Shown: positions 40,016 to 63,860 of the stretch, in pieces
Layout of the letters: every line of letters starts with the position of its first letter
Position numbering within the stretch: position 1 is the stretch's first letter
Virus record (IMG/VR): IMGVR_UViG_3300042301_002170
Strand: one strand, 5' to 3'
Length of the DNA: 64,000 nt
Origin: a virus
Made by a program: the position numbers and the translations under genes
The notes under the pieces: generated by a model
Seen by the model: the letters and a program-made list of their open reading frames with translations, nothing else
Told to the model about the DNA's origin: nothing
The model's database searches: none

Positions 40016-41275
40016 ATGAATATAATTGAAACAGATAAAGATTTACACTTATTAAATCCAGAGGAGATTTTATTGATAGTTCCTGTATGGAGTTCTCAAA
40101 GGGGACATCAATCAATGTTTCCAATATCATTCGTATATATAAAAACCAAAGATACGGATTTTATTTTAAATTTCCAACACATCGATGCAGATTCCGTTAC
40201 ACCATTCCCAATATCTAAACTCTGCAATCCAAACACATTAGTATTAGGAAACCGATATATCCAATCAAACGGACTTGATTATGAGTGGGTATATTTTGAA
40301 TCAGTAGGTAAACCATTTATATTTAATGATTTTGTAGAAACTCTTTTTAAGGGGTATAGAAACGATTATCTTTTCAACAATGACTGTATTCCTCTTATGA
40401 AGTGGTACGAACTCTTAAAATCAATACCTGAAGGGTTTGAGATAAAGGATTGGTATCGTAAATATTCGGATTCTATTTCTCTATTAGGAAAAGTGGAAGG
40501 GGCGGGGGTTCAAGTCGAAGTGGAAAATTTTATTGATAGATTTAGCTTCGATTCACGTTACATAGATGAGGGTAAAGTGTACACACAATACAATCCATAT
40601 ACTATTACGGGTAGACCATCCAATAGACATTTAAACGTAAATTACTCTGCTCTTCCTAAAGGTGATGGGAGTAGGGGAACTATTATTAGTAGGTGGACGT
40701 TTGGGAGTTTAATTCAATTTGATTATGAATCTTACCACATCCGTTTAATCGCGGGGTTGGTAGGGTATAAGTTTCCAATAGGTATATCTGCTCACCAATA
40801 CCTCGCAAATTACTATGGGTGTGATTACGATACTGCAAAAGGTTTAACCTTTAAGTATTTGTATGGAGGTTTAGACGACTTTGCGAGAGGAATACCGTTC
40901 TTTCAAAAAGTAGATTCATACATCGAAACTTTGTATCAACGGTATGTAATTTCGGGTAAATTAACGACACCTTTATTTAAAAGGGAAATTAATCATAATC
41001 GAATCGAATTACCGAATCAACAAAAAATATTTAACTATCTTCTACAAGCATTAGAAACTGAAATAAATTATATGAAGATGGTAGAGATGTTGGAGTTTAT
41101 GAGTGGGATGAAATCGAAAATAATCTTATACACCTATGATGCGTTCTTAATCGACACTCACCCATCGGAAAGAGATAAAATTTTGAACCTCCTACCGACC
41201 ATTATGGAAAAAGGTGGATTCCCCGTCAAAGCAGATGAAGGAACGAATTATGATAATTTGGTTCATTTACAATAA
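40016..41275 (+). CDS. Compact family A DNA polymerase
   Basis: TITGRPSN; motif A FDYESYHIRLIA; motif B AKGLTFKYLYG; NYLLQALE; motif C YTYDAFL. No clear 3'-5' exonuclease motif. Confidence 0.8.
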   Translation: MNIIETDKDLHLLNPEEILLIVPVWSSQRGHQSMFPISFVYIKTKDTDFILNFQHIDADSVTPFPISKLCNPNTLVLGNRYIQSNGLDYEWVYFESVGKPFIFNDFVETLFKGYRNDYLFNNDCIPLMKWYELLKSIPEGFEIKDWYRKYSDSISLLGKVEGAGVQVEVENFIDRFSFDSRYIDEGKVYTQYNPYTITGRPSNRHLNVNYSALPKGDGSRGTIISRWTFGSLIQFDYESYHIRLIAGLVGYKFPIGISAHQYLANYYGCDYDTAKGLTFKYLYGGLDDFARGIPFFQKVDSYIETLYQRYVISGKLTTPLFKREINHNRIELPNQQKIFNYLLQALETEINYMKMVEMLEFMSGMKSKIILYTYDAFLIDTHPSERDKILNLLPTIMEKGGFPVKADEGTNYDNLVHLQ

Positions 41276-44307: not shown

Positions 44308-44664
44308 ATGTCAGAAACCAAACTAGAACAGTCGGCAATTGCATATTGCGAAGAAATTTATCCAGAAACGTGTGATGAATTCAAAGTTATTTTAAACGAA
44401 ATGTATGAAACATTTTGTAAGAAACAAAGAAACTACGGACCTGGTAATATTTCCGTAGGAACTGCTCTGCAAACCAAAGAAGATATTAAATTATCTTTAA
44501 CAGGATTGTGGTTCAGACAAAACGATAAAATAAACAGATTAAAACAATTAGTAGTTATGGGTCAACCAGATGAAGTTGGAGAATCTGTTGAAGATACTTA
44601 CCAAGACCTTTCTATATATTCCGTAATTGCTCAATTAGTGAGTAGAGGAAAATGGGCAAAATAA
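44308..44664 (+). CDS. DUF1599 / nucleotide-modification-associated domain protein (all-alpha NTP pyrophosphatase-like)
   Basis: FCKKQRNYG..NI, RQNDKINRL, ESVEDTYQDLSIYSVIA pattern. Confidence 0.7.
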   Translation: MSETKLEQSAIAYCEEIYPETCDEFKVILNEMYETFCKKQRNYGPGNISVGTALQTKEDIKLSLTGLWFRQNDKINRLKQLVVMGQPDEVGESVEDTYQDLSIYSVIAQLVSRGKWAK

Positions 44665-46802: not shown

Positions 46803-47847
46803 CAAACGGTATTTAGATATACTAAAACAAATAGATAAAGAACATAATGAATTTGGTGATTTACATCGTAACTCCAAAACATTGATTATTGATGGTCTTA
46901 ATACCTTCATTCGTTCTTGGTCAACTGCTCCAAATCTTAACGATAATGGAGACCACATCGGAGGCATAGTCGGTACTTTAAAAAGTATCGGCTACGCAAT
47001 CCGTACAATCAATCCTACCCGATGTATCATTGTATTTGATGGTAAAGGTGGTAACAAAAGCAGACAAGATATATACTCTGGTTACAAAGCAGATAGAGGC
47101 AAGAACAAAATCAAAATGAGATTGAATCGTGCTGCATCTGTTGAAATGAATCAAGAAGAAGAAAGTGAATCAATGAGACGACAAATGTTCGGATTGGGTG
47201 AATTACTGTCTTCTTTACCAGTATCCATTATGATTTATGATGGAATCGAAGCTGATGATGTTATTGCTTACATCACTACTCAATTAAAGAAAGAAGATGA
47301 AAAGGTTGTGATAATGAGTTCCGATAAAGATTTCTTACAATTGGTAAATAAAGATGTGAGTGTTTATTCACCATCTAAAAAGAAAATCTACAATATACCA
47401 GAAGTGGTAGAAGAGTTCGGAATTCATCCACACAACTTTGTCAATTTCAGAATGATTGATGGAGATAAATCCGATAATTTAAATGGTTTACCTGGATTAG
47501 GATTAAAAACAATTATAAAAAACTTTCCAATATTAACTGAAGAAACGGTACAAACTACTGAATCTTTGTTAGAATATATCAAAGAGCAACCAAAGAAAAC
47601 AAAAGCTTACGATTTATTTCAAAATAACTTGGAAATATTAAAAAGAAATCGTAAATTGATGCAATTATCAGAACCAGAATTTAGTGGTACTATTCGTATG
47701 AAGATTATAGATAGATACAATGAAGATACTGTTAAGTTTGATAAGCAAGGTTTCTTAAAATTGGGATTAAGGCATAAAGTATTAGACGCATTCCCTAACG
47801 TAACTGATTGGTTACAAAGTACATTTTTACACATTTCAAAATTTTAA
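46789..47847 (+). CDS. rnh: 5'-3' exonuclease / RNase H (FEN-like)
   Basis: LIIDGLNTFIR, VFDG, YKADR, EADDVIAY, SSDKDFLQL, GDKSDNLNGLPGLG.KT. Confidence 0.9.
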   Translation: MSQINKRYLDILKQIDKEHNEFGDLHRNSKTLIIDGLNTFIRSWSTAPNLNDNGDHIGGIVGTLKSIGYAIRTINPTRCIIVFDGKGGNKSRQDIYSGYKADRGKNKIKMRLNRAASVEMNQEEESESMRRQMFGLGELLSSLPVSIMIYDGIEADDVIAYITTQLKKEDEKVVIMSSDKDFLQLVNKDVSVYSPSKKKIYNIPEVVEEFGIHPHNFVNFRMIDGDKSDNLNGLPGLGLKTIIKNFPILTEETVQTTESLLEYIKEQPKKTKAYDLFQNNLEILKRNRKLMQLSEPEFSGTIRMKIIDRYNEDTVKFDKQGFLKLGLRHKVLDAFPNVTDWLQSTFLHISKF

Positions 47848-47852
47848 AACAA

Positions 47853-48161
47853 ATGGCAGAAGAAAGATTAGCAAAACCGTTAGGAGATAGAGTTCTTTTA
47901 ACAGAATTAGAATCAGAGGTTTCACAGACAGCAGGTGGTATTATTATACCTGATTCGGTTAAAAACGAAGATATTAAAAGAGCAAAAGTAGAATCAGTAG
48001 GACCTGGTATTTACACACAATCTGGAACATTGATTCCAATGAATTTAGAAGTAGGTGATGAAGTAATCATTCCACCATACCATCAAGGATTGGAGATTAA
48101 AGTAGGTGGTAACAAATACATCTTACTTAGAGAATCAGAAATTTTAATGGTAGTTAAATAA
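47853..48161 (+). CDS. groES: Co-chaperonin GroES
   Basis: KPLGDRVLL, TAGGIIIPDS, VESVGPG, VGDEV, YILLRESEILMVV. Confidence 0.93.
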   Translation: MAEERLAKPLGDRVLLTELESEVSQTAGGIIIPDSVKNEDIKRAKVESVGPGIYTQSGTLIPMNLEVGDEVIIPPYHQGLEIKVGGNKYILLRESEILMVVK

Positions 48162-52658: not shown

Positions 52659-53381
52659 ATGGGTGAGAACTTATCTAATAAAAACAAAGAGTTGACAGAA
52701 AAAATAAAAGAAGAATTAATTGATAAACCAAAAGGACCAATTAAATTTCAGGTTCAGTTAAACGATGAACAAAAAGAAGCAAAGGAAAAAATCCTAAACA
52801 ACGCAATTACAATATTAAGTGGCAAAGCAGGTAGTGGTAAAACACTACTTGCCTGCCAAGTAGCATTAGATATGTTGTTTAAGAAAACCGTAACCAAAAT
52901 CATCATCACTCGTCCTACTGTAAGTAAAGAAGAGATTGGTTTTTTACCAGGTGATTTAAGAGAGAAGATGGAACCCTGGATGCAACCTGTTTATTCAAAC
53001 TTTTATCAATTATATAACAAAGAAAAGATTGATAAGATTTTACAAAACGGACAAGTAGAAATTGTACCTTTGGCATTTATGAGAGGTAGAACTTTTTTGG
53101 ATTCATTTATTATTGTAGATGAAGCACAGAATTGTACAAACGACCAGATGGAAATGATTACATCTCGTTTAGGATTAAGAAGTAAAATGGTTGTATGTGG
53201 TGATTCACAACAAGTAGATTTAAAGTATAAAGGAGAAAGTGGATTTAAGTTTTTAGTTACTGCAGCAAAGAAGATTAAAGATATGGATTCTCAAACTCTA
53301 TTAGTAAATCACAGACATCCAGTAGTAGATGCATTATTAGATGCATATGATGAATTTAAAGAAAAACAAAATAAAATATGA
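52659..53381 (+). CDS. phoH: PhoH-like ATPase
   Basis: GKAGSGKT, TRP, IGFLPG, PLAFMRGRTF, IVDEAQN, GDSQQVD, HRHP.V. Confidence 0.93.
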   Translation: MGENLSNKNKELTEKIKEELIDKPKGPIKFQVQLNDEQKEAKEKILNNAITILSGKAGSGKTLLACQVALDMLFKKTVTKIIITRPTVSKEEIGFLPGDLREKMEPWMQPVYSNFYQLYNKEKIDKILQNGQVEIVPLAFMRGRTFLDSFIIVDEAQNCTNDQMEMITSRLGLRSKMVVCGDSQQVDLKYKGESGFKFLVTAAKKIKDMDSQTLLVNHRHPVVDALLDAYDEFKEKQNKI

Positions 53382-53650
53382 TAACTGTAAAGAAATTTTC
53401 CGCATCATGGTGTGGACCGTGTAGAACTTTGAAACCAATCTTTGAAGAAGTAAGAAATGGTTATGGTAGTAACATTGTTAAATTTGAAGAATACGATGTT
53501 GATGAATCATCCGATGTTGCATCTAAATATAATATTCGTTCAGTACCAACTGTTATTGTTGAAAAGAATGGTAAAGAGGTAGGTAGATTTGCAGGTGTTC
53601 AATCTAAAATCGCCTATGTTAATTTAATAAACGAACAAATATTGAAATAA
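53378..53650 (+). CDS. trxA: Thioredoxin
   Basis: FSASWCGPCR, YNIRSVPT. Confidence 0.93.
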   Translation: MITVKKFSASWCGPCRTLKPIFEEVRNGYGSNIVKFEEYDVDESSDVASKYNIRSVPTVIVEKNGKEVGRFAGVQSKIAYVNLINEQILK

Positions 53651-53651
53651 G

Positions 53652-53683
53652 CTTGTTTTATTCAATTTTTTTTCGTAAATTTG
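53652..53683 (+). promoter_or_regulatory. Bacteroidota-type promoter
   Basis: CTTG-N20-TAAATTTG; ATG at 53687. Confidence 0.7.
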
Positions 53684-53686
53684 GTT

Positions 53687-54451
53687 ATGTATAAACATTT
53701 AGATTTTCATTTAGAAAGATATAACTATGAGGTGAATTTACCACCTATCGTAGTTCAAACCATCGGAGGTATAAAGGTTGTTAGAGATGACCTTTTACCT
53801 GGCGGTACAAAACGTAGATTCGCATATGCATATATGTTGGCATACCCACAGGTAGAGCAATGGATTTATGCATCACCAAGACAAGGATACGGACAAGTTG
53901 CATTAGCATATGCTTGTAGAGATTTAGGAAAAAAAGCAATAGTGTATGTTCCACAAGGTCAGAGAACCGAACTTACATTAGAAGCTGAAATGGTGGGTGC
54001 AGAAATCAACGAAGTTCCTATGGGATACTTAACTAACTTAAACCGAAAGGCAAAAGATAGACAAGGAAACGGATGGGATAAGATTAAATTAGTTCCATTC
54101 GGATTTGATGACCCAATCATTCTAAACACAATTGTAGAAACGGCAAGAAAACTACCATTCACACCAAAAGAAGTTTGGAGTGTAATGAGTTCTGGAACTT
54201 TGAGTAGAGGTTTGCAGTTAGCATGGCCTGATGCAAAAGTATATGGGGTTCAGATTGGACACAACACATCAATAGTTCAGCAAGGTAGAGCAATCACAAT
54301 ACCAAAAAGAATGCCCTTCCACAAAGATTGTAAATTGGAAGATAGACCTCCATTCCCATCATCACTAACATATGATAGTAAAGCATGGAAACATATTCAG
54401 GAGATGGCAACAATTAGTGAAGATACTTTATTTTGGAATGTTGGAAAATAA
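53687..54451 (+). CDS. Fold-type II PLP-dependent enzyme (ACC deaminase / D-cysteine desulfhydrase-like)
   Basis: VVRDDLLPGGTKRR (Schiff-base Lys position), GYGQVALAYACRDLG, GAEI..V, phosphate loop VMSSGTLSRG. Confidence 0.75.
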   Translation: MYKHLDFHLERYNYEVNLPPIVVQTIGGIKVVRDDLLPGGTKRRFAYAYMLAYPQVEQWIYASPRQGYGQVALAYACRDLGKKAIVYVPQGQRTELTLEAEMVGAEINEVPMGYLTNLNRKAKDRQGNGWDKIKLVPFGFDDPIILNTIVETARKLPFTPKEVWSVMSSGTLSRGLQLAWPDAKVYGVQIGHNTSIVQQGRAITIPKRMPFHKDCKLEDRPPFPSSLTYDSKAWKHIQEMATISEDTLFWNVGK

Positions 54452-54456
54452 ATGAG

Positions 54457-54486
54457 AAAATGCTTGGAAATACCAAGCATTTTTTG
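54457..54486 (+). terminator. Intrinsic terminator overlapping a promoter
   Basis: AAAATGCTTGG-AAATA-CCAAGCATTTT followed by Ts. Confidence 0.7.
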
Positions 54487-54494
54487 TATATTAG
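54463..54494 (+). promoter_or_regulatory. Bacteroidota-type promoter (variant)
   Basis: CTTG-N20-TATATTAG. Confidence 0.55.
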
Positions 54495-54541
54495 TATTAT
54501 AAAACAAACCGTTGCCGGACCGTACACCGGTATTAAAAGTT

Positions 54542-54895
54542 ATGAAAACATTTTTCAAAGAAACTCCAAAAGGAGCATTAGTAGAATCTACATTAATTGG
54601 ACGTAATCCAAATAGACCAGATGAATCCGTTTGGGTTAGATTTAAAAAAGAAACATCAGGAAGATATACTGTTGAAATACATTCAAATAGTAAAGATTCC
54701 GACCAACCTTGGAATAAAGAAAATAAACCGTGGAACAATACACAATTAATTGCAGCTAAATTATATGCAATAGATGTAACTCCTGAAAGTGTATTTCGAA
54801 CTAAATCATCTTTTAATTCAAATTCAATAGATGATGCATTAAAATCCAAAGATAAACTAACTCAATTTGCTAAAAAATTGACTCAATTATTTTAA
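54542..54895 (+). CDS. Hypothetical protein
   Basis: ATG at 54542, downstream of its own promoter; no recognised motif. Confidence 0.6.
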   Translation: MKTFFKETPKGALVESTLIGRNPNRPDESVWVRFKKETSGRYTVEIHSNSKDSDQPWNKENKPWNNTQLIAAKLYAIDVTPESVFRTKSSFNSNSIDDALKSKDKLTQFAKKLTQLF

Positions 54896-54905
54896 AATAC
54901 ATAAT

Positions 54906-55418
54906 ATGAAAAGCAGAGAAGAAGTAGAAAAGTGGATGCGAAATGAAGTTTCTAATCCTATAATTGGTGATTTAATTATGAGAATGACGGAAGATGGATT
55001 ACCGATGGATGAAATTTTAGAAATGATAAAACCATTAGTAGATAATACACCAAATGTAGAAAGAAAATTGGTAGAAGATTATATGAAAAAAGAAAGAATT
55101 GAAGATGGGGATGTTATAACATCTAAAATAGAAGAGTTTGCAAACATCGCAGAACTTAATGGTTTTGAAACAATATTTTCCGTATATGAAGTTAATAATA
55201 TAAATGAACTATCTGGCATTACTGCCGATTATATTACAAACGGATTAGATGCTACTCAAATCGAATTGGAAAATAAAGAATTGACTTGGTTAGAGTTATG
55301 GGCAGCTGCCGATAATTTATACAAAAAGATTGGAGATACGGAACATTTGTTTGTAGAAAGTTTTGATGTTATTCAGAATGGAGATAAAACAGAAGTTCAG
55401 GTATTCTTTGGAAGTTAA
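54906..55418 (+). CDS. Hypothetical acidic protein
   Basis: Clean ORF; C-terminal TWLELWAAADNL....GD.EH.F.E.F. Confidence 0.6.
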   Translation: MKSREEVEKWMRNEVSNPIIGDLIMRMTEDGLPMDEILEMIKPLVDNTPNVERKLVEDYMKKERIEDGDVITSKIEEFANIAELNGFETIFSVYEVNNINELSGITADYITNGLDATQIELENKELTWLELWAAADNLYKKIGDTEHLFVESFDVIQNGDKTEVQVFFGS

Positions 55419-55437
55419 AAATAAATAAAACAAAATG

Positions 55438-55469
55438 ATTGATAATACCAAATATATTTCGTATATTTG
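55438..55469 (+). promoter_or_regulatory. Bacteroidota-type promoter
   Basis: ATTG-N20-TATATTTG, with the same TATATTTGTATTAATGAA string as the promoter at 43862. Confidence 0.75.
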
Positions 55470-55474
55470 TATTA

Positions 55475-55537
55475 ATGAACCAGTGGAGCAGAACCCACTT
55501 TAAAAAACGAAACGTTTATAACAACGCTATTATTTAA
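55475..55537 (+). CDS. Putative leaderless leader peptide (uORF, 20 aa)
   Basis: MNQWSRTHFKKRNVYNNAII-stop. ATG lies 5 nt after the -7 box, as for the apparently leaderless genes at 40016 and 43875. Confidence 0.45.
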   Translation: MNQWSRTHFKKRNVYNNAII

Positions 55538-55593
55538 TAACTTCATAAACATATAAATTGAAGTTAAAAATGTAGCATAAAACACAAACAATT

Positions 55594-56940
55594 ATGAGTA
55601 ATTTTATTGATGGCTTAGTAGCCGCAGAAATCGAGCACGCGAATCAGACTCGCGATTTACAAATCAACGCACGAGCAAACGAAACAAGACGTGAGCATGG
55701 GGCAACATTTGAAAAGTATGTAGACACTTTATTAGTTAAAAGTGGTTTAGGATGTCAAAGAACACGTGTTAAGACATCGGATGGTGAGAAGATTAGTGAC
55801 CATACGTTTAATAATGTTTGGATGGAATCCACTACATTTTTTGATAAGAAACGTGTAAACGAATTCATTCTCAAGAAAAGAGTAATTGAAGAAGCAACTG
55901 CTGATTTTACAAAATTCTTTTTGTTTTATGAGAGAAACATTACTAAATTAACAGAAGGTCTTGTAGAGAAGTTGGTAAATGCTGGATGGGTAGTGTTATG
56001 TGGTAAGAATAAAATTGAAACATTTATTAGTGCATATGGGAAGCATGCATCAAATGTTACAAATGATGTTATTCAGGTCGCGAAACCACAGTTAATTGAT
56101 ATAGATTTATTAATTAAAAACCCATTTAATAGAGAACAAAATAGTAAGGGTGTAGAATCTATTGCAAAATCAATTATAAATGAAGGATTTTTAACTTGTT
56201 TATATGTTGTTCCACGAAAAGATAAAAATGGTAAGATAACAGGATATATGTTATTTGAAGGTCATCATAGATTAAGTGCAGCGATACAGGTGAGGTCTTG
56301 GGGGTTTTCATTAAATCAATTACCATGTGTAGTTGTTGATTGGTTATCTACCGATAATATGGAAAAATTATCAAGATTGTTAATTAAAATAAACGTAGAA
56401 TACAGAAGTTGGAAATTGGGTGATTATATTAAACACCATTTTGATGTTGCAGAACTTTTAATCAAAGATAAGAACACTGCTTCAACTATTGTTAAAAAAC
56501 AATACTCATATCAAACATTATTAAATTGGATGAAAATTGGTAAGCAATATGGATTTGGTGATAATGGGTTAATTTATATATTAGGACCTTTAACTGGTAG
56601 TGATAGGTGGTTAGACCAGGATTTGATTAGAGGTGGTGATTATATCGTAGAACAATCGGAAGTTGAAAATTATGCAACTCCATTTTTTGATGTAATGAAA
56701 AATTTTATATCAAAGGCAAAACAAAATGCTGAATATAGAAAAGATGTATATCAATTATTCTGTTGTGAATTATATGAAAAGTTAAAAGATGGTACAGTAT
56801 CGTTGGATGAAATAAACAATTATTTTTTAGCATATAATATGTTGGATTCTACCGAAGTTCCTAATAAAAAATCCGATGTTAAAAACATATACCAAAAATT
56901 GGATGATAATATTAAACATTTCAAAAACGGATTTAAATAA
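55594..56940 (+). CDS. PD-(D/E)xK-like N-terminus fused to a ParB/sulfiredoxin-like domain
   Basis: GATFEKYV...ISDH....VWMEST, then IDIDLL..NPFNR...IAKSI..EGFL..L.V...LFEGHHRL.AA. Confidence 0.65.
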   Translation: MSNFIDGLVAAEIEHANQTRDLQINARANETRREHGATFEKYVDTLLVKSGLGCQRTRVKTSDGEKISDHTFNNVWMESTTFFDKKRVNEFILKKRVIEEATADFTKFFLFYERNITKLTEGLVEKLVNAGWVVLCGKNKIETFISAYGKHASNVTNDVIQVAKPQLIDIDLLIKNPFNREQNSKGVESIAKSIINEGFLTCLYVVPRKDKNGKITGYMLFEGHHRLSAAIQVRSWGFSLNQLPCVVVDWLSTDNMEKLSRLLIKINVEYRSWKLGDYIKHHFDVAELLIKDKNTASTIVKKQYSYQTLLNWMKIGKQYGFGDNGLIYILGPLTGSDRWLDQDLIRGGDYIVEQSEVENYATPFFDVMKNFISKAKQNAEYRKDVYQLFCCELYEKLKDGTVSLDEINNYFLAYNMLDSTEVPNKKSDVKNIYQKLDDNIKHFKNGFK

Positions 56941-56946
56941 CAATAA

Positions 56947-58176
56947 ATGTATATAAAATACTTTGATAAGTTTAAAAATATGACTCCATATCTTCACATC
57001 AATAGTGAAGAGTGGAGTTATATTAAAACAACATTTGATAGAGATGATGTAAAAGACTCTCTTGCACAGATATGTATGGAGTATGAACTTCCGTATGCAG
57101 AAATATCAGAAACCGAAGCTAGAAAGGAATATCTTGCTCTCAAAGGAACTCGTTACAACGAACTACTTAAAGAGGGTGAGTGGTTTCCTCGTAAAGCATC
57201 GGAAAGTAAGTATCCTTTAACATTCAGAGGTAAACAACAATTCGTAAGAAGGTTGAATACTGGCAACTCTTCATCCAATTACTTCCAACAAGCAAATCGT
57301 TGGAGTGTAGATGGTACAGTTTCACCAGGACCTCATAGAACTTGGAATAGTAAGGATTTTATGACGAGTTTAATGGGTGGATTATACACTCTTAAATTTG
57401 ATGAAGTGGGAAGGAACGAACTAAGAGTTTGTTTGAGTTTAAGAAAGTACATTTGCTCACAATTCAAACCTAATGTTGCCAAAGCACTCTACGATATGGT
57501 AGGTGCAAAGAATGTGTTAGACATTTCGGCAGGGTGGGGAGATAGATTATGTGGTTTTATGGCGAGTGAAAAAGGAGAGCATTACGTGGGAATTGACCCG
57601 AGAAAAGAAAATCATCCAATTTATGAACAACAAGCAGAATTCTACAAAAAACACAACGGTTTTTTCGAAACGGATAAAAAAACTACATTCCATTGCTCAC
57701 CAGCGGAAGACATGGATTATAGTGATTACACCGATTATTTTGATATTGTTTTCAGCTCACCCCCGTATTTCAATGTTGAACGATATTCTTACGATGATAC
57801 CCAGAGTTGGGTTAGATACAACAACATTGATGCGTGGAATAAGTTATTCCTACACAAGACAATTGAAAAGGTTTGGCCAACTATTCGGAAGGGAGGATAC
57901 CTAGCAATCAATATCGCAGATGTGTACGCAGCATCTAAAGGAGATGGTAAAGGATACCAAGAGATTACAAACCCTATGAACGATTATATTAAATCAATAG
58001 GAGGAGAATATGAAGGTTGCTTGGGCATGGAAATGGCCAAGAGACCGGGCAGCGCGGGAGCAGGTGCAATTATAGACGGTGATGAAGGTAGATATACCGA
58101 AGAATCATTAAGAAAAGCAGAAGAGGTTAAAAATAAAACATTCTGTGAGCCAGTTTGGGTATGGAAAAAACCATAA
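56947..58176 (+). CDS. SAM-dependent DNA amino-methyltransferase (N4-C or N6-A)
   Basis: QFKPNVAK, motif I VLDISAGWGDRL, YVGIDP, motif IV FSSPPYFNVERY, GGYLAINIAD. Confidence 0.8.
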   Translation: MYIKYFDKFKNMTPYLHINSEEWSYIKTTFDRDDVKDSLAQICMEYELPYAEISETEARKEYLALKGTRYNELLKEGEWFPRKASESKYPLTFRGKQQFVRRLNTGNSSSNYFQQANRWSVDGTVSPGPHRTWNSKDFMTSLMGGLYTLKFDEVGRNELRVCLSLRKYICSQFKPNVAKALYDMVGAKNVLDISAGWGDRLCGFMASEKGEHYVGIDPRKENHPIYEQQAEFYKKHNGFFETDKKTTFHCSPAEDMDYSDYTDYFDIVFSSPPYFNVERYSYDDTQSWVRYNNIDAWNKLFLHKTIEKVWPTIRKGGYLAINIADVYAASKGDGKGYQEITNPMNDYIKSIGGEYEGCLGMEMAKRPGSAGAGAIIDGDEGRYTEESLRKAEEVKNKTFCEPVWVWKKP

Positions 58177-58179
58177 ACA

Positions 58180-58211
58180 TTTGGAAATATCAAAAAATTA
58201 TAGTATCTTTG
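58180..58211 (+). promoter_or_regulatory. Bacteroidota-type promoter
   Basis: TTTG-N20-TATCTTTG. Confidence 0.8.
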
Positions 58212-58240
58212 TAAAACAAATAAATTAAAATAAAGTAAGT

Positions 58241-58960
58241 ATGAACAAAACAAGAATTACACGATTCATCCAAAAGTATAATTTGGCAGGATTAGTAGAA
58301 TCAGTTGCATGGAAAGCAGCAGATGGCAAATTGGTTACCCGTTTTATCTCTGATGATAAAACAGTATTAGGTGAAATCCAATTAGATAATTTTACATTTA
58401 ATGCACCGGAGTTGGGAGTATATACAACATCCACATTAAATAAATTATTATCAGTAGTTGGAGAAGATGTTGAATTAGAAGTTCAGGAGCAAAACGGAAA
58501 TGCAGTTAATTTATTCATTAAGAGCGAAGGAACAAAAGCACAATTCCAATTAGCAGATTTGGCAGTTATTCCAACTGTACCTGATTTGAAATCATTACCT
58601 GACTTTGATGTTAAGATTGAATTCGATGGTAAGTTTATTGACAAATTTATCAAAGGTAAAAATGCATTATCTGATGTAGATACTTTTACAGTATTAAGTG
58701 AGGGTGGTGAATTAAAAATTGTATTGGGTTATTCAAATGTAAATTCAAACCGAATTGCATTCTCTGCTGAAAAGGATTATACAGGAACTGTTAAACCTAT
58801 TTCATTCTCTGCAAAGTATCTTAAAGAAATCTTCTCAGCAAACAAAGAAGCAAACGCAGTTACATTAAATGTATCAACATCTGGTCTTGCTCACGTTGAG
58901 TTTAAGATTGATGACTTTACTGCAAAATATTATTTAGTAGAAGTTCAACTAACTACCTAG
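58241..58960 (+). CDS. DNA polymerase sliding clamp (gp45/PCNA-like)
   Basis: 239 aa, alternating beta/alpha pattern, FSAKYL, SGLAHVEF and KYYLV C-terminus; near PolB and the clamp loader. Confidence 0.7.
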   Translation: MNKTRITRFIQKYNLAGLVESVAWKAADGKLVTRFISDDKTVLGEIQLDNFTFNAPELGVYTTSTLNKLLSVVGEDVELEVQEQNGNAVNLFIKSEGTKAQFQLADLAVIPTVPDLKSLPDFDVKIEFDGKFIDKFIKGKNALSDVDTFTVLSEGGELKIVLGYSNVNSNRIAFSAEKDYTGTVKPISFSAKYLKEIFSANKEANAVTLNVSTSGLAHVEFKIDDFTAKYYLVEVQLTT

Positions 58961-58961
58961 A

Positions 58962-60533
58962 ATGGCATTCAATTACGAAAAGAAGTATTTTTACGAAAGA
59001 AACGATTGGATTTACTCTCCAGAAATAAATCTTAAATACGAAGATGTATTGAAGATGCCTTTTCCAGAGTTTGGTAAATGGGTTGATTTCTTTCGTAAGA
59101 CTGCCATTGAGCAGTGGAACAGAACGGATGCACCACCGAGAATTGGTATGGACGAAGCTGAAATTATTGAAAACTTTTCTAAACTACAAACATACAAAGT
59201 TAATGAGTTTAGTAAGGTAGACAAAGATGGTGATGAAGTTATTTTTAACTTTAACAAATTTGCCACTTGTGTAAATCAATTCTTTCCTGCAATGTACAAA
59301 ACAGGTATTGGTGGTTCTGCGTATGATAATCCAAAACCATCTATCTATGATATTTTTGTAGAAGATGAGTATTTACCAAACTTCATCAAACAGATGAATC
59401 GTCTAACTCGTCAAGATGGTATGTATCGTTTTTCTAAAACTTTACACTTAAACCATCCTGATTTTCATAACTCACATATCCAAACTGGTAAAGAATGGAT
59501 TGAGAAATGGGCAGAGGGTGATACTCAAAAAGGATTTGGGTTTTGTTTATCTCAGGCAGATAGTAAAGTTCCATCTCCACCAATTACCGCACAAGAAGTA
59601 AGAGATTTGTATAACGCGGGTATATTGAAGTATGAGAATATTTCATCACTTAAAACTGCGGATTGGGGTGAGAATATTGATAATCTAATTGATATTCCAA
59701 AACAACCTATACAGATTAAAACATATCCTTTTGGTCAAACTATCTTTCCAGAAGCAACTGCGGCATTCCGTATTGGTATGGGAACACAGGCAGTAGTTAA
59801 TTTTCCACCATTAACTGCAAAGTATCTTTATCAAAGATTTACAGAGCACATTAAGGAACAAAAGAAGATTAACATTTATGACCCATCAGCAGGTTGGGGT
59901 GGTAGAATTTTAGGAGCATTATCGGTAGATGATAGAAACATTCACTACATAGGTAATGACCCTAATACTGAAAACCAAATACCGGAAATTGGTAAGACAA
60001 GATATGAGTATTTAGCAGAATTCTTTAACAATAAGATTCCAGGTGCAAGTAATCCTTTTTGGGGACACCAAAACACTTACGAAATCTTTACAACTGGTTC
60101 TGAAATTATTCATTTAGATTCTAACTTTCAAAAGTATAAAGGAGAATTAGATTTTGTATTTACATCTCCACCATACTTTGATAGAGAAAGATATTCAAAC
60201 GATGAAACTCAATCATTTAAGAAGTTCAGTAACTACGATAGTTGGAGAGATGGATTTTTAAGACCTACTTTAACAACTGCATTTGAATATCTTCGTAATG
60301 ATAGATACATCCTTTGGAACATTGCGGATATTAAAATGGGTAAGGATAAGTTTTTCCCATTAGAGCAAGATTCAATTGATATTCTTACGGAGTTGGGTTG
60401 TGAGTACAAAGGTAAGATTAAGATGACAATGAGTCCTATGACCGGTGTTGATTTGAGTGGAGTGAAAAATAGTATGAAAATAGGTGATATGGTTTACAAA
60501 TACGAACCAATCTTCATTTTCTACAAACCTTAA
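58962..60533 (+). CDS. Second SAM-dependent DNA amino-methyltransferase
   Basis: VNFPPLTAK, motif I IYDPSAGWGGRIL, YIGNDPN, motif IV FTSPPYFDRERY, WNIAD, YEPIFIFYKP. Confidence 0.8.
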   Translation: MAFNYEKKYFYERNDWIYSPEINLKYEDVLKMPFPEFGKWVDFFRKTAIEQWNRTDAPPRIGMDEAEIIENFSKLQTYKVNEFSKVDKDGDEVIFNFNKFATCVNQFFPAMYKTGIGGSAYDNPKPSIYDIFVEDEYLPNFIKQMNRLTRQDGMYRFSKTLHLNHPDFHNSHIQTGKEWIEKWAEGDTQKGFGFCLSQADSKVPSPPITAQEVRDLYNAGILKYENISSLKTADWGENIDNLIDIPKQPIQIKTYPFGQTIFPEATAAFRIGMGTQAVVNFPPLTAKYLYQRFTEHIKEQKKINIYDPSAGWGGRILGALSVDDRNIHYIGNDPNTENQIPEIGKTRYEYLAEFFNNKIPGASNPFWGHQNTYEIFTTGSEIIHLDSNFQKYKGELDFVFTSPPYFDRERYSNDETQSFKKFSNYDSWRDGFLRPTLTTAFEYLRNDRYILWNIADIKMGKDKFFPLEQDSIDILTELGCEYKGKIKMTMSPMTGVDLSGVKNSMKIGDMVYKYEPIFIFYKP

Positions 60534-60542
60534 AATTAAAGT

Positions 60543-63101
60543 ATGTATCAAAATATTTATTACGAAAGACAAAAGAATTTAATTCACTTATGGGATGATA
60601 CCAATGGGTATCAGACATTTCCATACAGAAAGTATGCATATGTTAAAGACCAACATGGTGAACATCGTTCTATGTATGGTGATAAATTACGGAAGATTTC
60701 TAAATGGGAAAAAGATGAATCACCTGATTTATTTGAATCCGATGTACCAGAAACAACCAGAGTATTAGTTGATATATATGATTCTGATATTCCATCAAAA
60801 GGAAACAGAACAATGACCTTTGATATTGAGGTTGAAATGATTAGTGGTTTGCCAAATACCTTTGATGCAAAAAACGAAATCACTGCAATTGCTTCGCACG
60901 ATAGTGTAACCAAATTGTATGATGTGTTTGTGTTGGATAAGGCAAGAAAGGTAAAAAACACTGCTCAACAATTCAATAAAGATGGTCGTAGTGTGAGTGT
61001 ACACATCTTTGATAATGAGAAGAATTTGCTATTAGCATTTTTAACTTATTATCAAGGTGTGAATCCTACTATTCTAACAGGTTGGAATATTGACTTCTTT
61101 GATATTCCTTATTTATACAATCGTATTAAGAGAGTATGTGGTGAAGGACATGCAAAGAGATTATCACCCATTTCAGAAACATTCTATTCTCCTTACAGAC
61201 AAAGATGGAGTTTTGGTGGTGTATCCATTTTAGATTACATCAACCTCTACAAAAACTACAACTATGGTTTAGAAAGTTCATATACATTAGACCACATAGC
61301 AAAGAAAGAGTTGGGCAGAGGTAAGATTGAATATGAAGGAAGTTTGGATGATTTATTCGAAAACGATTTAGAAAAGTTTATTGAATATAACATTGTCGAT
61401 GTAGACTTGGTAGTATCAATGGATGAGAAACTTCAATTCATTGAGTTATGTAGAGCAATCTGCCACGCGGGATTTGTTCCGTATGAAGATTATATGTTCT
61501 CATCAAAGTATTTGGAAGGCGCGTGTTTAGCGTATCTGAAAAAGAAAGGTTTAGTAGCACCAAATAAACCAAAGGATAGGAAAGAGAAGATGCAGGCACT
61601 TCGTGATAATAACGAAGAGAAGTTTATCGGAGCTTATGTAAAAGAACCCATTGTTGGTAAGTATGATTGGATTTATGACTTGGACTTAACATCCCTATAT
61701 CCATCAATCATTATGACCCTAAATATTTCACCCGAAACAAAGATTGGTAAGATTTCTAATTGGGAACCTGAAGAATGGGTAAGAGGTATAAATAAGAATT
61801 ATACAATTGTTGGAAAAGATGATACTTATGAATATAGTAGTTCAGAACTCCAAGATGTTATAAAAGATAGCAACTTAGGAGTTGCAGCAAACGGAGTTTT
61901 GTACAATCAGGACAAACCTGGACTTATTGCTGATATTCTGGATACTTGGTTTAAACAACGAGTTGAATTCAGAAAATTAGAAAAACAATATGGTGAAGCG
62001 GGTGATACGGAAAAATATGAGTTTTATGCGAAACGCCAGCTTGTCCAAAAGATTCTTCTTAACTCTATGTATGGTGTTCTTGGTCTTCCTGCCTTTCGGT
62101 TTTACGATATTGATAATGCAGAGGCAGTTACGATTACGGGGCAAACTGTTATTAAGAAAACGGCAGAGATGGCAAACATCAAATATTGGAAAGAGTTAGG
62201 TACAAAAGAAGATTACAATGTCTACATAGATACCGATTCAATCTATATGATGGCAGAACCTTTGGTTAAACATCGTTATCCAGATTACAAAACATTTGAT
62301 GAACAAAGAATGGCAGATGAAGTTAATACTATTGCAGAAGAAACCCAAACATTCTTAAACAACTTTTACGATTTATTATCAGAAAGATTCTTCGGAATAC
62401 CAAAAGATAAACATAGATTTGAAATCAAAAAAGAATACATCTCCAAAGCAGGATTTTGGGTAGCAAAGAAACGTTACGCACAATGGATGGTATTGAAAAA
62501 TGGTATCAAATGTGATAAGTTGGACGTAAAAGGTTTAGATGTAGTTCGTTCATCATTCCCCAAAGCATTTCAAGGATTCATGTCAACAATGTTAAAAGAC
62601 ATTTTGATGGGTAAAGATAATGATTATATAGATAAAACCCTAATTGAATTTAAGAATAGTTTACCAACACTTCCTGTTAAAACTATTGCAAAGGGTGGGG
62701 CAATTAAAGAGTTGAGTAAGTATGATGATGGTAAGTGGAGAAAAGATAGTGGGTTACAGATTGCAGTGTTTGAGAAAGGAACACCTGCACACGTTAAAGC
62801 AGGAATTGCATACAACCGATTATTGAAATTCTTCAATTCACCGTTTAAGCATGAACCAATTAGAGATGGTGATAAAGTTAAGTGGGTGTATTTAAGACAA
62901 AATCCATTAGGATTGGATACGGTTGCTTTTAAAGATTACAATGACCCTAAAGAAATTATGGATTTCATTGAACAGTACATAGATAGAGACATGATTTATA
63001 AAGCAGAGTTAGAAAACAAATTAGATGATTTTTACAACGCACTAAAATGGAACAAAGCATCTAACGAAGTTCAAACTGCAAAAAAATTCTTTGATTTCTA
63101 A
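60543..63101 (+). CDS. gp43: Family B DNA polymerase (gp43-like)
   Basis: ExoI FDIEV, GWNIDFFDIPY, YNIVDV, DLTSLYPS, KILLNSMYG, YIDTDS, KKRY. Confidence 0.95.
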   Translation: MYQNIYYERQKNLIHLWDDTNGYQTFPYRKYAYVKDQHGEHRSMYGDKLRKISKWEKDESPDLFESDVPETTRVLVDIYDSDIPSKGNRTMTFDIEVEMISGLPNTFDAKNEITAIASHDSVTKLYDVFVLDKARKVKNTAQQFNKDGRSVSVHIFDNEKNLLLAFLTYYQGVNPTILTGWNIDFFDIPYLYNRIKRVCGEGHAKRLSPISETFYSPYRQRWSFGGVSILDYINLYKNYNYGLESSYTLDHIAKKELGRGKIEYEGSLDDLFENDLEKFIEYNIVDVDLVVSMDEKLQFIELCRAICHAGFVPYEDYMFSSKYLEGACLAYLKKKGLVAPNKPKDRKEKMQALRDNNEEKFIGAYVKEPIVGKYDWIYDLDLTSLYPSIIMTLNISPETKIGKISNWEPEEWVRGINKNYTIVGKDDTYEYSSSELQDVIKDSNLGVAANGVLYNQDKPGLIADILDTWFKQRVEFRKLEKQYGEAGDTEKYEFYAKRQLVQKILLNSMYGVLGLPAFRFYDIDNAEAVTITGQTVIKKTAEMANIKYWKELGTKEDYNVYIDTDSIYMMAEPLVKHRYPDYKTFDEQRMADEVNTIAEETQTFLNNFYDLLSERFFGIPKDKHRFEIKKEYISKAGFWVAKKRYAQWMVLKNGIKCDKLDVKGLDVVRSSFPKAFQGFMSTMLKDILMGKDNDYIDKTLIEFKNSLPTLPVKTIAKGGAIKELSKYDDGKWRKDSGLQIAVFEKGTPAHVKAGIAYNRLLKFFNSPFKHEPIRDGDKVKWVYLRQNPLGLDTVAFKDYNDPKEIMDFIEQYIDRDMIYKAELENKLDDFYNALKWNKASNEVQTAKKFFDF

Positions 63102-63142: not shown

Positions 63143-63475
63143 ATGGCAGAACAATTAGATTTATTTCCACAAGAGGAATTACAACAACAAGACGCGGGTA
63201 GTGTTCAATCACCTGAATTAACCCCAATAGCAGATGCAGAGTGGTGTTTTCAATTTTTTAACAACGAACCAATAACATTTGCATGGTCAAATGAGGGAGA
63301 AGAAGCTGCACCATTGGTTTTACAAATTCAACCACAAGAAGGTGAAGGGTTAAATTTTCAACAAAACGGAATGACTTTTAGAATTTTCCCAAGACCAATT
63401 ACAGAAGAAACTAAACAAGCAAGAAAAGAACAAAATGAAAGTAAAAATCAAACTACTGAACAATCAGGCAACTAA
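63143..63475 (+). CDS. Hypothetical acidic protein
   Basis: ORF downstream of the promoter, overlapping the dUTPase start. Confidence 0.55.
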   Translation: MAEQLDLFPQEELQQQDAGSVQSPELTPIADAEWCFQFFNNEPITFAWSNEGEEAAPLVLQIQPQEGEGLNFQQNGMTFRIFPRPITEETKQARKEQNESKNQTTEQSGN

Positions 63476-63860
63476 ACCAAAGTACGCAAAAGAAAGTGAT
63501 GCAGGATTAGATTTGGTGGCAACATCAATTATATCAAACACAACATTTCAGGTAACATATGGTTTGGGTATTGCAATGGAAATACCAGAAGGTATGGTTG
63601 GTTTAGTATTTCCCCGTTCTTCAATAAGAAACACAGAATTGATACTAAGTAATTCAGTTGGTGTAATTGATGCAGGTTATAGGGGTGAATTACAAGCAAC
63701 ATTTATCAAATTAAATGGTTTAGATTCAGTTGCATATAATGTTGGTGATAGAGTTTGTCAAATCATTATAGTTCCTCATCCTGTAGTACAATTACAGGTA
63801 GTAGATGAGTTAAGTGAAAGTGCAAGAGGTATAGGTGGGTTTGGTTCAACAGGTAAATAA
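63435..63860 (+). CDS. dut: Trimeric dUTPase
   Basis: DAGLDL, PRSS, GVIDAGYRGEL, RGIGGFGSTG. Confidence 0.95.
   Translation: MKVKIKLLNNQATKPKYAKESDAGLDLVATSIISNTTFQVTYGLGIAMEIPEGMVGLVFPRSSIRNTELILSNSVGVIDAGYRGELQATFIKLNGLDSVAYNVGDRVCQIIIVPHPVVQLQVVDELSESARGIGGFGSTGK

Follow-up and report, generated by a model that had tools for sequence, protein, structure and literature searches.

To our knowledge, the hypermodifications described in phage DNA start either from a pre-made odd nucleotide (viz. 5-hydroxymethyluracil (5-hmU), 5-hydroxymethylcytosine (5-hmC) or 7-deazaguanine) or from Mom-type chemistry. The gp52 protein of phage M6 is a decarboxylase that depends on pyridoxal 5'-phosphate (PLP) and converts DNA-bound C-alpha-glycinyl-thymidine into 5-aminoethyl-uridine, and its residue K36 has been proposed as the Schiff-base lysine (Lee et al., PMC8989533). 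In microcin C biosynthesis, the methyltransferase-fold protein MccD transfers an aminocarboxypropyl group from S-adenosylmethionine (SAM), the N-terminal PLP domain of MccE carries out a decarboxylation, and the nucleosidase Mtn assists (PMC10491745). The present work concerns a cluster of genes at positions 53,687 to 60,533 of a 64,000-nucleotide stretch (the whole of which is referred to as the window) of the IMG/VR virus record IMGVR_UViG_3300042301_002170. This cluster encodes a homologue of gp52 (hereafter the PLP enzyme), a fusion of a nuclease-fold domain with a ParB-like domain, and two SAM enzymes of the amino-methyltransferase family with SPPY motifs (MT1 and MT2). The window is phage DNA with a G+C content of about 33% and with all of its genes on the + strand. 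Contigs from about 20 lake-water metagenome runs cover the stretch, and its source is therefore an uncultured freshwater phage; a DNA-level search of the phage collection with the region gave no match.

Our analyses suggest that this phage probably carries a SAM-derived decoration of its DNA that has not previously been described, the chemistry of which we infer from the genes. It is likely that a DNA adduct is the substrate of the PLP enzyme, which would work together with enzymes of the MT family. The explanation that we consider best overall, in which the PLP enzyme tailors an adduct on a DNA base and the pathway depends on the MT-family enzymes, has in our judgement an even chance of being correct, and the identification of the adduct as the aminocarboxypropyl group of SAM is a tentative proposal, more readily doubted than accepted. 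An earlier note, made from the letters of the window, had suggested that these genes may build a modified base beyond simple methylation. All of the genes that it named lie where it had placed them on the + strand, and the functional link that it drew between the PLP enzyme and the SPPY enzymes, extending beyond plain methylation, is upheld by fusions of the PLP domain to MT1-like, MT2-like and ParB-methyltransferase proteins and by the homology to gp52. We found no paper on a methyltransferase-PLP module for DNA modification in the open-access literature. Phage DNA hypermodification with tailoring by a PLP enzyme is already known, and it is the installing chemistry that may be new.

The PLP enzyme and its homology to gp52

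The PLP enzyme is a protein of 254 amino acids (aa) encoded at positions 53687–54451 (+ strand; an alternative TTG start is located at 53681), and it is of fold type II and of the M6 gp52 type, as indicated by its matches to PF00291 (31.5 bits, against a cut-off of 35 bits) and phrog_7093 (4e-36) and by BLASTP. The RDD..GGTK and SSGT motifs, which had been pointed out earlier, are present, and in an alignment of 21 homologues the residues R33-D34-D35, G39-G40-T41-K42 and S168-S169-G170 are invariant or near-invariant, with K42 being invariant. In the BLASTP comparison with M6 gp52 (YP_001294560; the identity of the gene was checked) the two proteins align from end to end (residues 14–254 vs. 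11–278; 2e-16, 26% identity), K42 is placed opposite K36 of gp52, and the SSGT phosphate loop as well as the C-terminal motifs PFPS..YD.KAW..FWN.G are common to both. According to the earlier note, the enzymes of the characterised thymidine pathways are different ones; for the PLP gene this is wrong, gp52 being its homologue. On the basis of this similarity, the window enzyme is predicted to decarboxylate an amino-acid adduct that is bound to DNA. A tblastn search of limited sensitivity with M6 gp51, gp53 and gp54, which comprise the amino-acid:DNA transferase, the isomerase of the radical-SAM type and the kinase of 5-hydroxymethyl-deoxyuridine (5-hmdU), detected no homologue either in the window or in the 80 related loci covered.

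More than 1100 homologues of the PLP enzyme are present in public metagenomes. Its relatives within the phage collection form two sets, one with identities of 42% (Erythrobacter phages R6L and ZS04) and 38% (Microcystis phage Mae-JY30), and one at 26% that comprises 52 records of Pseudomonas phages of the M6/YuA type (tblastn). A palindrome with a perfect 11-bp stem, located by pattern matching alone, begins 6 nt past the stop codon of the PLP gene (54457–54483), and it could possibly be a terminator that works in both directions, or a mark of the cassette to which the gene belongs. Across the PLP gene, the similarity of contigs from RNA runs is only about 91%; these contigs may represent DNA carry-over, and no claim of expression rests on them.

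Fusions of the PLP enzyme to methyltransferase-family proteins

Fourteen longer proteins that carry this PLP domain have been identified (designated below by P and a number, related loci being designated by L and a number). The domain is joined to an MT1-like protein in P0121 and P0134 (one of which spans MT1 residues 42–359), to an MT2-like protein in P0125 and P0126, and to a further MT-like protein in P0122. In P0128, P0131 and P0132, one of which comes from Nitrosomonas nitrosa, an Asp/Arg-hydroxylase domain of the 2-oxoglutarate (2OG) oxygenase type stands between the MT2-like and PLP parts; P0131 and P0132 match MT2 over its residues 10–522 (9e-58 and 4e-53, respectively), and P0128 has the MT2-like catalytic part only. 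A ParB domain, a methylase and the PLP domain are found in a single chain in P0127.

A different arrangement is seen in gp1 of the Erythrobacter phage vB_EliS_R6L (807 aa; L001:4822-7242), which starts with a ParB domain, followed by a methyltransferase that is split by the PLP domain into an N-terminal half (motifs X, I and II) and a C-terminal half (from CPPY onward). The PLP domain (residues 397–625) is thus located between motif II and motifs III/IV, inside the methyltransferase fold, and P0129 and P0130 are built alike. In the Microcystis phage Mae-JY30 the ParB protein, the methylase and the PLP enzyme are encoded by three consecutive overlapping genes, and the PLP domain of R6L therefore represents an insertion inside the methyltransferase fold. 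The Mae-JY30 methylase matches both MT1 and MT2 by BLASTP, including the motif that follows SPPY. As judged from their sequences, the fusions, of which there are at least 10, represent independent architectures from phages as well as bacteria, and they constitute the strongest result in favour of the link between the PLP enzyme and the MT family.

The SPPY enzymes MT1 and MT2

MT1 (56947–58176, + strand) is a SAM enzyme of the amino-methyltransferase fold that bears a conserved N-terminal domain of 170 aa, and MT2 (58962–60533, + strand) is a paralogous SPPY enzyme with a different N-terminal domain of 290 aa. The catalytic domains of the two are paralogous (hhalign 1e-33), and their N-terminal domains are unrelated to each other and are each strongly conserved. 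The order of the motifs is X, I, II, III, IV, with motif I (SAGWGDR in MT1 and SAGWGGR in MT2) lying upstream of SPPY. In the MT1 alignment S271-P-P-Y274, D192, S194, G196-R200, D217 and E254-D255 are all invariant; in MT2, S402-P-P-Y405 is near-invariant and residues equivalent to the SAM motifs of MT1 are present.

The AlphaFold2 (AF2) model of MT1 (predicted local distance difference test (pLDDT) score 86) has a class I methyltransferase (Rossmann) fold. The nearest folds are those of exocyclic-amine methyltransferases (m2G/m6A enzymes among them), viz. TrmN (Z 15.8), Trm11 (15.7), Trm14, METTL5 and PrmC, all with Z-scores of 14–16 that are tied with many others. MccD (5fcd) appears at rank 33 among about 500 generic methyltransferases in a Foldseek search with this model, not set apart from hundreds of other such folds, and lies outside the top 50 of the Z-score ranking. 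MT2 matches PF01555 with 24.6 bits (gathering cut-off 26.7), MT1 has no PF01555 match, and the matches to Eco57I are weak. Sequence searches of the PDB with MT1 and MT2 found no relatives, the profile of the MT1 alignment reaching an E-value of 0.36 (2zie). There are 477 relatives of MT1 in IMG/VR, and the cultured-phage relatives of the catalytic domain are annotated as N4-cytosine or DNA methylases. Some relatives of the window phage possess, besides MT2, tandem pairs of MT1 paralogues (L019:13417-15854 and L079:2898-5314) that are 47–51% identical to the window MT1.

Core genes and a variable island

The genomic surroundings were compared in 77 loci from IMG/VR seeded with the PLP enzyme (52–98% identity) and 79 loci seeded with MT1 (68–94% identity). 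Where a PLP-seeded locus extends for at least 5 kb on both sides, an MT-family gene is nearly always present (19 of 20 loci), the exception having a truncated MT2 at the end of the contig, and at least three gene orders occur among the loci that combine PLP and MT genes. Since most of the MT1-seeded loci are without a PLP gene, while the PLP loci nearly always have MT genes, MT1 and MT2 are, on the evidence of these comparisons, core genes of a lineage of lake phages, located beside PolB and the sliding clamp. A reading of the cluster as a unit that is kept or lost as a whole is accordingly not supported.

In the window, the PLP gene forms part of an accessory cassette of 3.3 kb (53674–56937) that lies between the thioredoxin gene and MT1, includes orf127, orf170 and the nuclease-ParB gene, and is absent from a population variant. 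The interval between thioredoxin and MT1 varies from 37 to 6605 nt among 94 loci and differs in its gene content. In relatives this island may hold the PLP gene alone, the PLP gene with the nuclease-ParB gene (in the window and one close relative), the PLP gene with an unrelated 600-aa gene, the PLP gene with a dUTPase and a SAM-lyase-family gene, or an HD protein with the PLP gene. Other islands contain an AsnB-like glutamine amidotransferase with a GNAT acetyltransferase, a weak thymidylate-synthase-like gene (PF00303, 2.6e-4), or nothing. In a further variant the AsnB-like gene is accompanied by a 2-hydroxyacid dehydrogenase and by a second gp52-like PLP family (278 aa; L152:9125-9961) which is 28% identical to gp52 (6e-24) and 23% identical to the PLP enzyme of the window. 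The AsnB-like gene (L095:5961-7418 and 56 related loci) and the GNAT gene (L093:9483-10010 and 40 related loci) occupy the thioredoxin-MT1 island in many relatives that are without the PLP gene. The AsnB-like, GNAT, 2-hydroxyacid dehydrogenase and gp52-like PLP enzymes all act on amine, carboxylate or 2-oxo-acid groups. The 600-aa and 480-aa genes present in the islands of relatives have no match in Pfam, NCBIfam or PADLOC.

A second phage group and bacterial islands

In a second group of phages the modification block is composed of MT2, a gene of unknown function, the PLP gene, a BGT-like (beta-glucosyltransferase-like) GT-B glycosyltransferase, a TAGT-like GT-A glycosyltransferase, an HD protein and MT1, to which a gene resembling methylthioadenosine/S-adenosylhomocysteine (MTA/SAH) nucleosidase is often added and, once, a GmrSD-like HNH protein. 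Among the neighbouring genes in relatives are thus both SAM-lyase-family and MTA/SAH-nucleosidase-like ones.

The bacterial fusion P0125 is encoded in an island (L164:5486-13077; metagenome-assembled genome GCA_945882315.1) that consists, in this order, of a nuclease-helicase, a 227-aa protein, the MT2-PLP fusion itself and a BGT-like protein, with a resolvase nearby. Over the first 650 positions of PADLOC's Type IIG restriction-methylase model, the nuclease-helicase (1203 aa; Mrr nuclease and helicase) gives a match of 1e-144. The 330-aa protein that follows P0125 is 40% identical to the gene following PLP in the group-2 phages, and its Atlas model resembles T4 beta-glucosyltransferase (template modelling (TM) score 0.70); a PDB sequence search with this family returned nothing useful. 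Two different islands (L164:9346-10029 and L166:1750-2397) encode a conserved protein of 215–227 aa (the copies are 28% identical, 2e-23) whose gene runs into the beginning of the bacterial MT2-PLP fusion, and neither it nor a 325-aa partner of the bacterial fusions has a match in Pfam, NCBIfam or PADLOC. The islands that harbour the triple fusions also carry either a resolvase together with a type I restriction-modification (R-M) system or genes of type IV CRISPR. In its gene content the P0125 island resembles a Type ISP restriction system in which the methylase has been replaced, and such bacterial islands are the expected site of a DNA-modifying enzyme that protects self DNA.

None of the relatives' genes for MTA/SAH nucleosidase, the SAM-lyase family, HD, AsnB-like, GNAT, 2-hydroxyacid dehydrogenase, thymidylate-synthase-like, BGT-like or TAGT proteins was found in the window by tblastn.

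A possible pathway and its alternatives

The aminocarboxypropyl transfer would be the simplest route to the proposed substrate because the PLP enzyme would need a free alpha-amino acid on DNA, the only partners that it has throughout are SAM enzymes, and SAM itself holds such an amino acid. In the pathway that we propose, MT1 and/or MT2 would flip a base out of the DNA and transfer to it the 3-amino-3-carboxypropyl group of SAM rather than the methyl group, with the release of methylthioadenosine. The free alpha-amino group of the resulting DNA-bound amino acid would then form an aldimine with PLP by way of K42, and decarboxylation of the adduct would leave a cationic aminopropyl group that may hinder host nucleases. 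In relatives without the PLP gene, the adduct might be left unchanged, or be amidated and acetylated by the AsnB-like and GNAT enzymes. The amidotransferase, acetyltransferase, 2-hydroxyacid dehydrogenase and beta-hydroxylase-type oxygenase of the islands and fusions fit an adduct bearing an amine and a carboxylate. The SAM-lyase-family and MTA/SAH-nucleosidase-like neighbours in relatives also speak for the proposal. The transfer of a SAM-derived group followed by a PLP-dependent step, as the earlier note had put forward, is also our best guess, although for the PLP step we favour decarboxylation over the elimination or deamination suggested there. A wider reading, which we regard as speculative and on balance unlikely to hold in full, is that MT1, MT2 and their relatives are DNA aminocarboxypropyl transferases, which would be the first enzymes known to hypermodify canonical bases after replication with the amino-acid part of SAM; that a toolkit of gp52-type PLP decarboxylases, AsnB-like amidotransferases, GNATs, 2OG oxygenases and BGT-like glycosyltransferases sculpts the adduct and is exchanged among phages as a cassette; and that the same enzymes provide bacterial Type ISP-like restriction systems with their modification arm.

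Several observations weigh against the participation of MT1 and MT2 in such a pathway or against the pathway itself. As judged from sequence and model, the two enzymes are indistinguishable from ordinary amino-methyltransferases, and nothing in them points to the transfer of anything beyond a methyl group. The co-occurrence of PLP and methyltransferase genes across phages, which the earlier note had named as a check, stands when viewed from the PLP loci but not from the MT1 side, where a PLP match within 10 kb (at the tblastn threshold) is found in just 13 of the 79 MT1-seeded loci. MT1 and MT2 do not, by their distribution, need the PLP enzyme, most relatives carrying them without it, and co-occurrence inside one lineage is not independent evidence. 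In a single contig of depth 4 from one lake-metagenome run (X5), positions 53673 and 56938 are joined with only TCT between them; the contig represents the same phage type minus the cassette from PLP to ParB, and the cassette is hence dispensable. (Joints that skip 4103 nt have 29 letters on their short side and were not used.) The 215–227-aa protein of the bacterial islands could be the adduct-installing enzyme, or a further member of the pathway. Lastly, the window covers only 64 kb of the genome, so that a route by way of a hydroxymethylase, a kinase and a transferase may lie elsewhere, and a weak thymidylate-synthase-like gene is present in the island of some relatives.

A rival view is that MT1 and MT2 are plain methylases forming N6-methyladenine or N4-methylcytosine, that the PLP enzyme works on SAM chemistry off the DNA (e.g., by the removal of SAH or a breakdown product, or by the formation of decarboxy-SAM for use by the transferases), and that the fusions serve for cofactor channelling. 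The methyltransferase fold, the SPPY motif and the methylase annotations of the cultured-phage relatives agree with it, as do the MTA/SAH-nucleosidase-like and SAM-lyase-family neighbours and the many relatives that have MT1 and MT2 without PLP; moreover, an order in which decarboxy-SAM is made first is conceivable even for MccD/MccE (PMC10491745). We nevertheless consider this view unlikely, given that amino acids bound to DNA are the substrates of the one homologue of the PLP enzyme that has been characterised, that cofactor recycling leaves the beta-hydroxylase-type fusion domain and the conserved DNA-glucosyltransferase-like neighbour unexplained, and that the AsnB-like, GNAT and 2-hydroxyacid dehydrogenase genes allelic to the cassette suggest an adduct with an amine and a carboxylate. 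The homology to gp52 has a different implication if the PLP enzyme acts, as in M6 and ViI, on an amino acid carried by a 5-hydroxymethyl-pyrimidine, the other enzymes being encoded outside the window, where most of the genome lies, and MT1 and MT2 being unrelated methylases nearby. The weak thymidylate-synthase-like gene and the HD hydrolases of some islands, together with the BGT- and TAGT-like glycosyltransferases of group 2, could be accommodated in this way. It is decidedly improbable, however, in view of the lack of any gp51, gp53 or gp54 homologue in the window or the 80 loci and of all the relatives' accessory genes in the window (both by tblastn), and it leaves unexplained at least 10 independent PLP-MT fusions, some of them in bacteria with canonical DNA.

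A pathway that begins with methylation of an exocyclic amine, the methyl group then being elaborated (by an oxygenase in bacteria and by PLP-dependent C-C or C-N bond formation here, e.g., via an N-hydroxymethyl/iminium species), would account for the 2OG-oxygenase-type domain between the MT2-like and PLP parts of P0128, P0131 and P0132, for the glucosyltransferase-like neighbour, which requires a hydroxyl acceptor, and for the methyltransferase fold. The window is without an oxygenase, gp52-type fold-type-II PLP enzymes are known solely as decarboxylases, and no precedent for such a route was found in the open-access papers searched; we regard it as very improbable. Even less credence is given to the PLP enzyme being an auxiliary metabolic enzyme that acts on a free amino acid (1-aminocyclopropane-1-carboxylate (ACC), D-cysteine, serine/threonine or diaminopropionate) and is unrelated to DNA: its nearest solved or NCBIfam matches are indeed diaminopropionate ammonia-lyase and serine/threonine dehydratases, and the cassette is dispensable, but these matches are very weak (E 0.0004–0.1), the protein falls short of those enzymes by about 80 residues and aligns with gp52 from end to end, and it is fused to proteins of the DNA-methyltransferase family and always found in replication or modification neighbourhoods.

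If the preferred explanation, viz. a methyltransferase-fold SAM enzyme followed by a PLP enzyme, is true, then it amounts to a biosynthetic logic that is new for DNA. One would then also expect new bases that stop restriction enzymes from acting and disturb the sequencing and cloning of environmental DNA, and the explanation would point to a new kind of bacterial restriction-modification system. The module is common in public metagenomes, and its fused or adjacent form is present in two cultured phages (R6L and Mae-JY30), so that it is directly testable.

Other genes of the region

The nuclease-ParB protein (448 aa; 55594–56940, + strand) is composed of a PD-(D/E)xK domain, a ParB/Srx domain and a helical part, and its description as a nuclease-ParB fusion proves correct at the level of the fold, as seen from its AF2 model (pLDDT 85.5) and from fold searches. 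Residues 34–155 have the PD-(D/E)xK fold (Z 11.7 with AF1548, 10.6 with Can2 and 10.2 with PspGI), residues 160–272 have the ParB/sulfiredoxin fold (Z 12.9 with PadC at a root mean square deviation of 2.1 over 98 residues, and Z 10.3 with sulfiredoxin; Foldseek 4e-6 with Noc/ParB), and the C-terminal part is helical and ParB/KorB-like. D69, E78, N179, R180 and R226, which are located in the motifs ISDH, WxESTT, NR and GHHR, are invariant, the other residues of these motifs varying; within GHHR, R226 alone is invariant and G223 is near-invariant. K94 is near-invariant, and the position of the canonical ExK lysine of the nuclease domain is occupied by T80. The protein matches phrog_4715 (2e-11), has no match to the Pfam ParB families, and shows no homology by BLAST to the methylase-linked ParB domains of Mae-JY30 or R6L. 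Its family is rare, with 30 relatives among 1.8 billion representatives, and it occurs only in the window, in one IMG/VR contig (L005, L087) and in about 30 metagenome proteins. This rarity, and the unrelated 600-aa gene that takes its place in a relative beside a 98%-identical PLP enzyme, tell against the membership in the pathway that had been assigned to it. As suggested by the model, it is probably a separate DNA-targeting nuclease carried as cargo of the cassette, and we guess that it may discriminate modified from unmodified DNA. A pairing of a ParB fold with a nuclease as in this protein is also seen in a GmrSD-like protein (DUF262-type N-terminal domain and HNH) in the modification block of a group-2 phage (L019:10991-12676).

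The remaining cargo of the cassette consists of two small open reading frames (ORFs). For orf127 (54512–54895, + strand), no match was found in Pfam, PHROG, NCBIfam or PADLOC and no homologue in 160 related loci, and it is without a family. The acidic protein of orf170 (54906–55418, + strand) has a single match (93% identity, at the edge of L085) and nothing credible in Pfam, NCBIfam, PADLOC or PHROG.

The order of the genes in the window runs from structural genes to DUF1599, gp32, RecA-like, flap endonuclease (FEN), GroES, DnaB, the small and large subunits of ribonucleotide reductase (RNR), PhoH and thioredoxin, and it continues with PLP, orf127, orf170, nuclease-ParB, MT1, clamp, MT2, PolB and dUTPase. 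Thioredoxin (53378–53650; phrog_22, 4.8e-13), which is present in 69 of the 79 MT1-seeded loci, forms the conserved left border of the variable island. The sliding clamp between MT1 and MT2 (58241–58960) was recognised from a PCNA_C match of 2.8e-4, which is below the Pfam cut-off, and from its synteny in relatives. The family B DNA polymerase PolB (60543–63101; PF00136, 1.6e-34) has its nearest cultured counterpart in the Microcystis phage Mel-JY01 (49.7% identity), and the dUTPase (63435–63860) lies downstream of it; all of these genes are on the + strand. The DUF1599/Nmad1 gene (44308–44664, + strand; PF07659 1.1e-4, below the cut-off; phrog_1485 5e-13), located 9.0 kb upstream of the cassette, had earlier been associated with the cluster. 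Its 54%-identical homologue is present in Mel-JY01, where PLP, MT1 and MT2 were not found, and the association is not sustained.

Further observations concern other genes of the window phage and its relatives. A 419-aa ORF at window positions 40016–41275 has a weak match to family A DNA polymerases (PF00476, 1.6e-7, below the cut-off), alongside the full PolB. A GroES (Cpn10) homologue is encoded between FEN and DnaB (47808–48161; 1.4e-23), and a GroEL-like gene is located between PolB and the clamp in some relatives (L045:13616-15232).

Comparison with known systems

With the pathways of M6, which makes 5-(2-aminoethyl)deoxyuridine (5-NedU) by means of gp52, and of the Salmonella phage ViI, which makes 5-(2-aminoethoxy)methyl-deoxyuridine (5-NeOmdU) by means of gp226 (PMC8989533), the window shares a full-length gp52 homologue, encoded by a phage in a neighbourhood of nucleotide and replication genes, and a PLP enzyme that is one of several tailoring enzymes whose combinations vary among relatives. 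It differs from them in that the partners of its PLP enzyme are SPPY enzymes, and the 5-hmdU kinase, the aGPT-Pplase transferase and the radical-SAM isomerase were not found in the window or the 80 loci. The ParB-fused N6/N4 methyltransferases of the PF01555 type in R6L (gp1) and Mae-JY30 have in common with MT1 and MT2 the motifs X, I, (S/C)PPY and ExYS.D..Q, and these phages likewise possess a PLP homologue (38–42% identical) and a ParB-fold protein in the cluster. In the window, however, the genes are three separate ones, the N-terminal domains of MT1 and MT2 are unique and the enzymes fall below the PF01555 cut-off, and the ParB protein carries a nuclease-fold domain of the PD-(D/E)xK type.

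Microcin C biosynthesis resembles the proposed pathway in its use of a methyltransferase-fold SAM enzyme and a PLP decarboxylase, and a nucleosidase-like gene is a neighbour in relatives of the window; its substrate, however, is a peptide-nucleotide and not DNA, and it serves as a working analogy only. The likeness to the Type ISP/IIG R-M systems (of the LlaGI/LlaBIII type) is confined to the bacterial islands, a context that is absent from the window: there an Mrr nuclease with a helicase adjoins the MT2-PLP fusion, but the modification part is a separate MT2-PLP fusion with a BGT-like glycosyltransferase and not a fused N6-adenine methylase. In the biosynthesis of wybutosine (TYW2/TYW4/TYW5) and diphthamide (Dph5/Dph6), a methyltransferase-fold transferase installs a SAM-derived aminocarboxypropyl group, which is then tailored by hydroxylating, amidating and other amine- or carboxyl-modifying enzymes. 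Although the substrates of these pathways are tRNA and protein, respectively, their set of tailoring enzymes would, by analogy, have counterparts in the module described here, namely its oxygenase domain, AsnB-like amidotransferase and GNAT.

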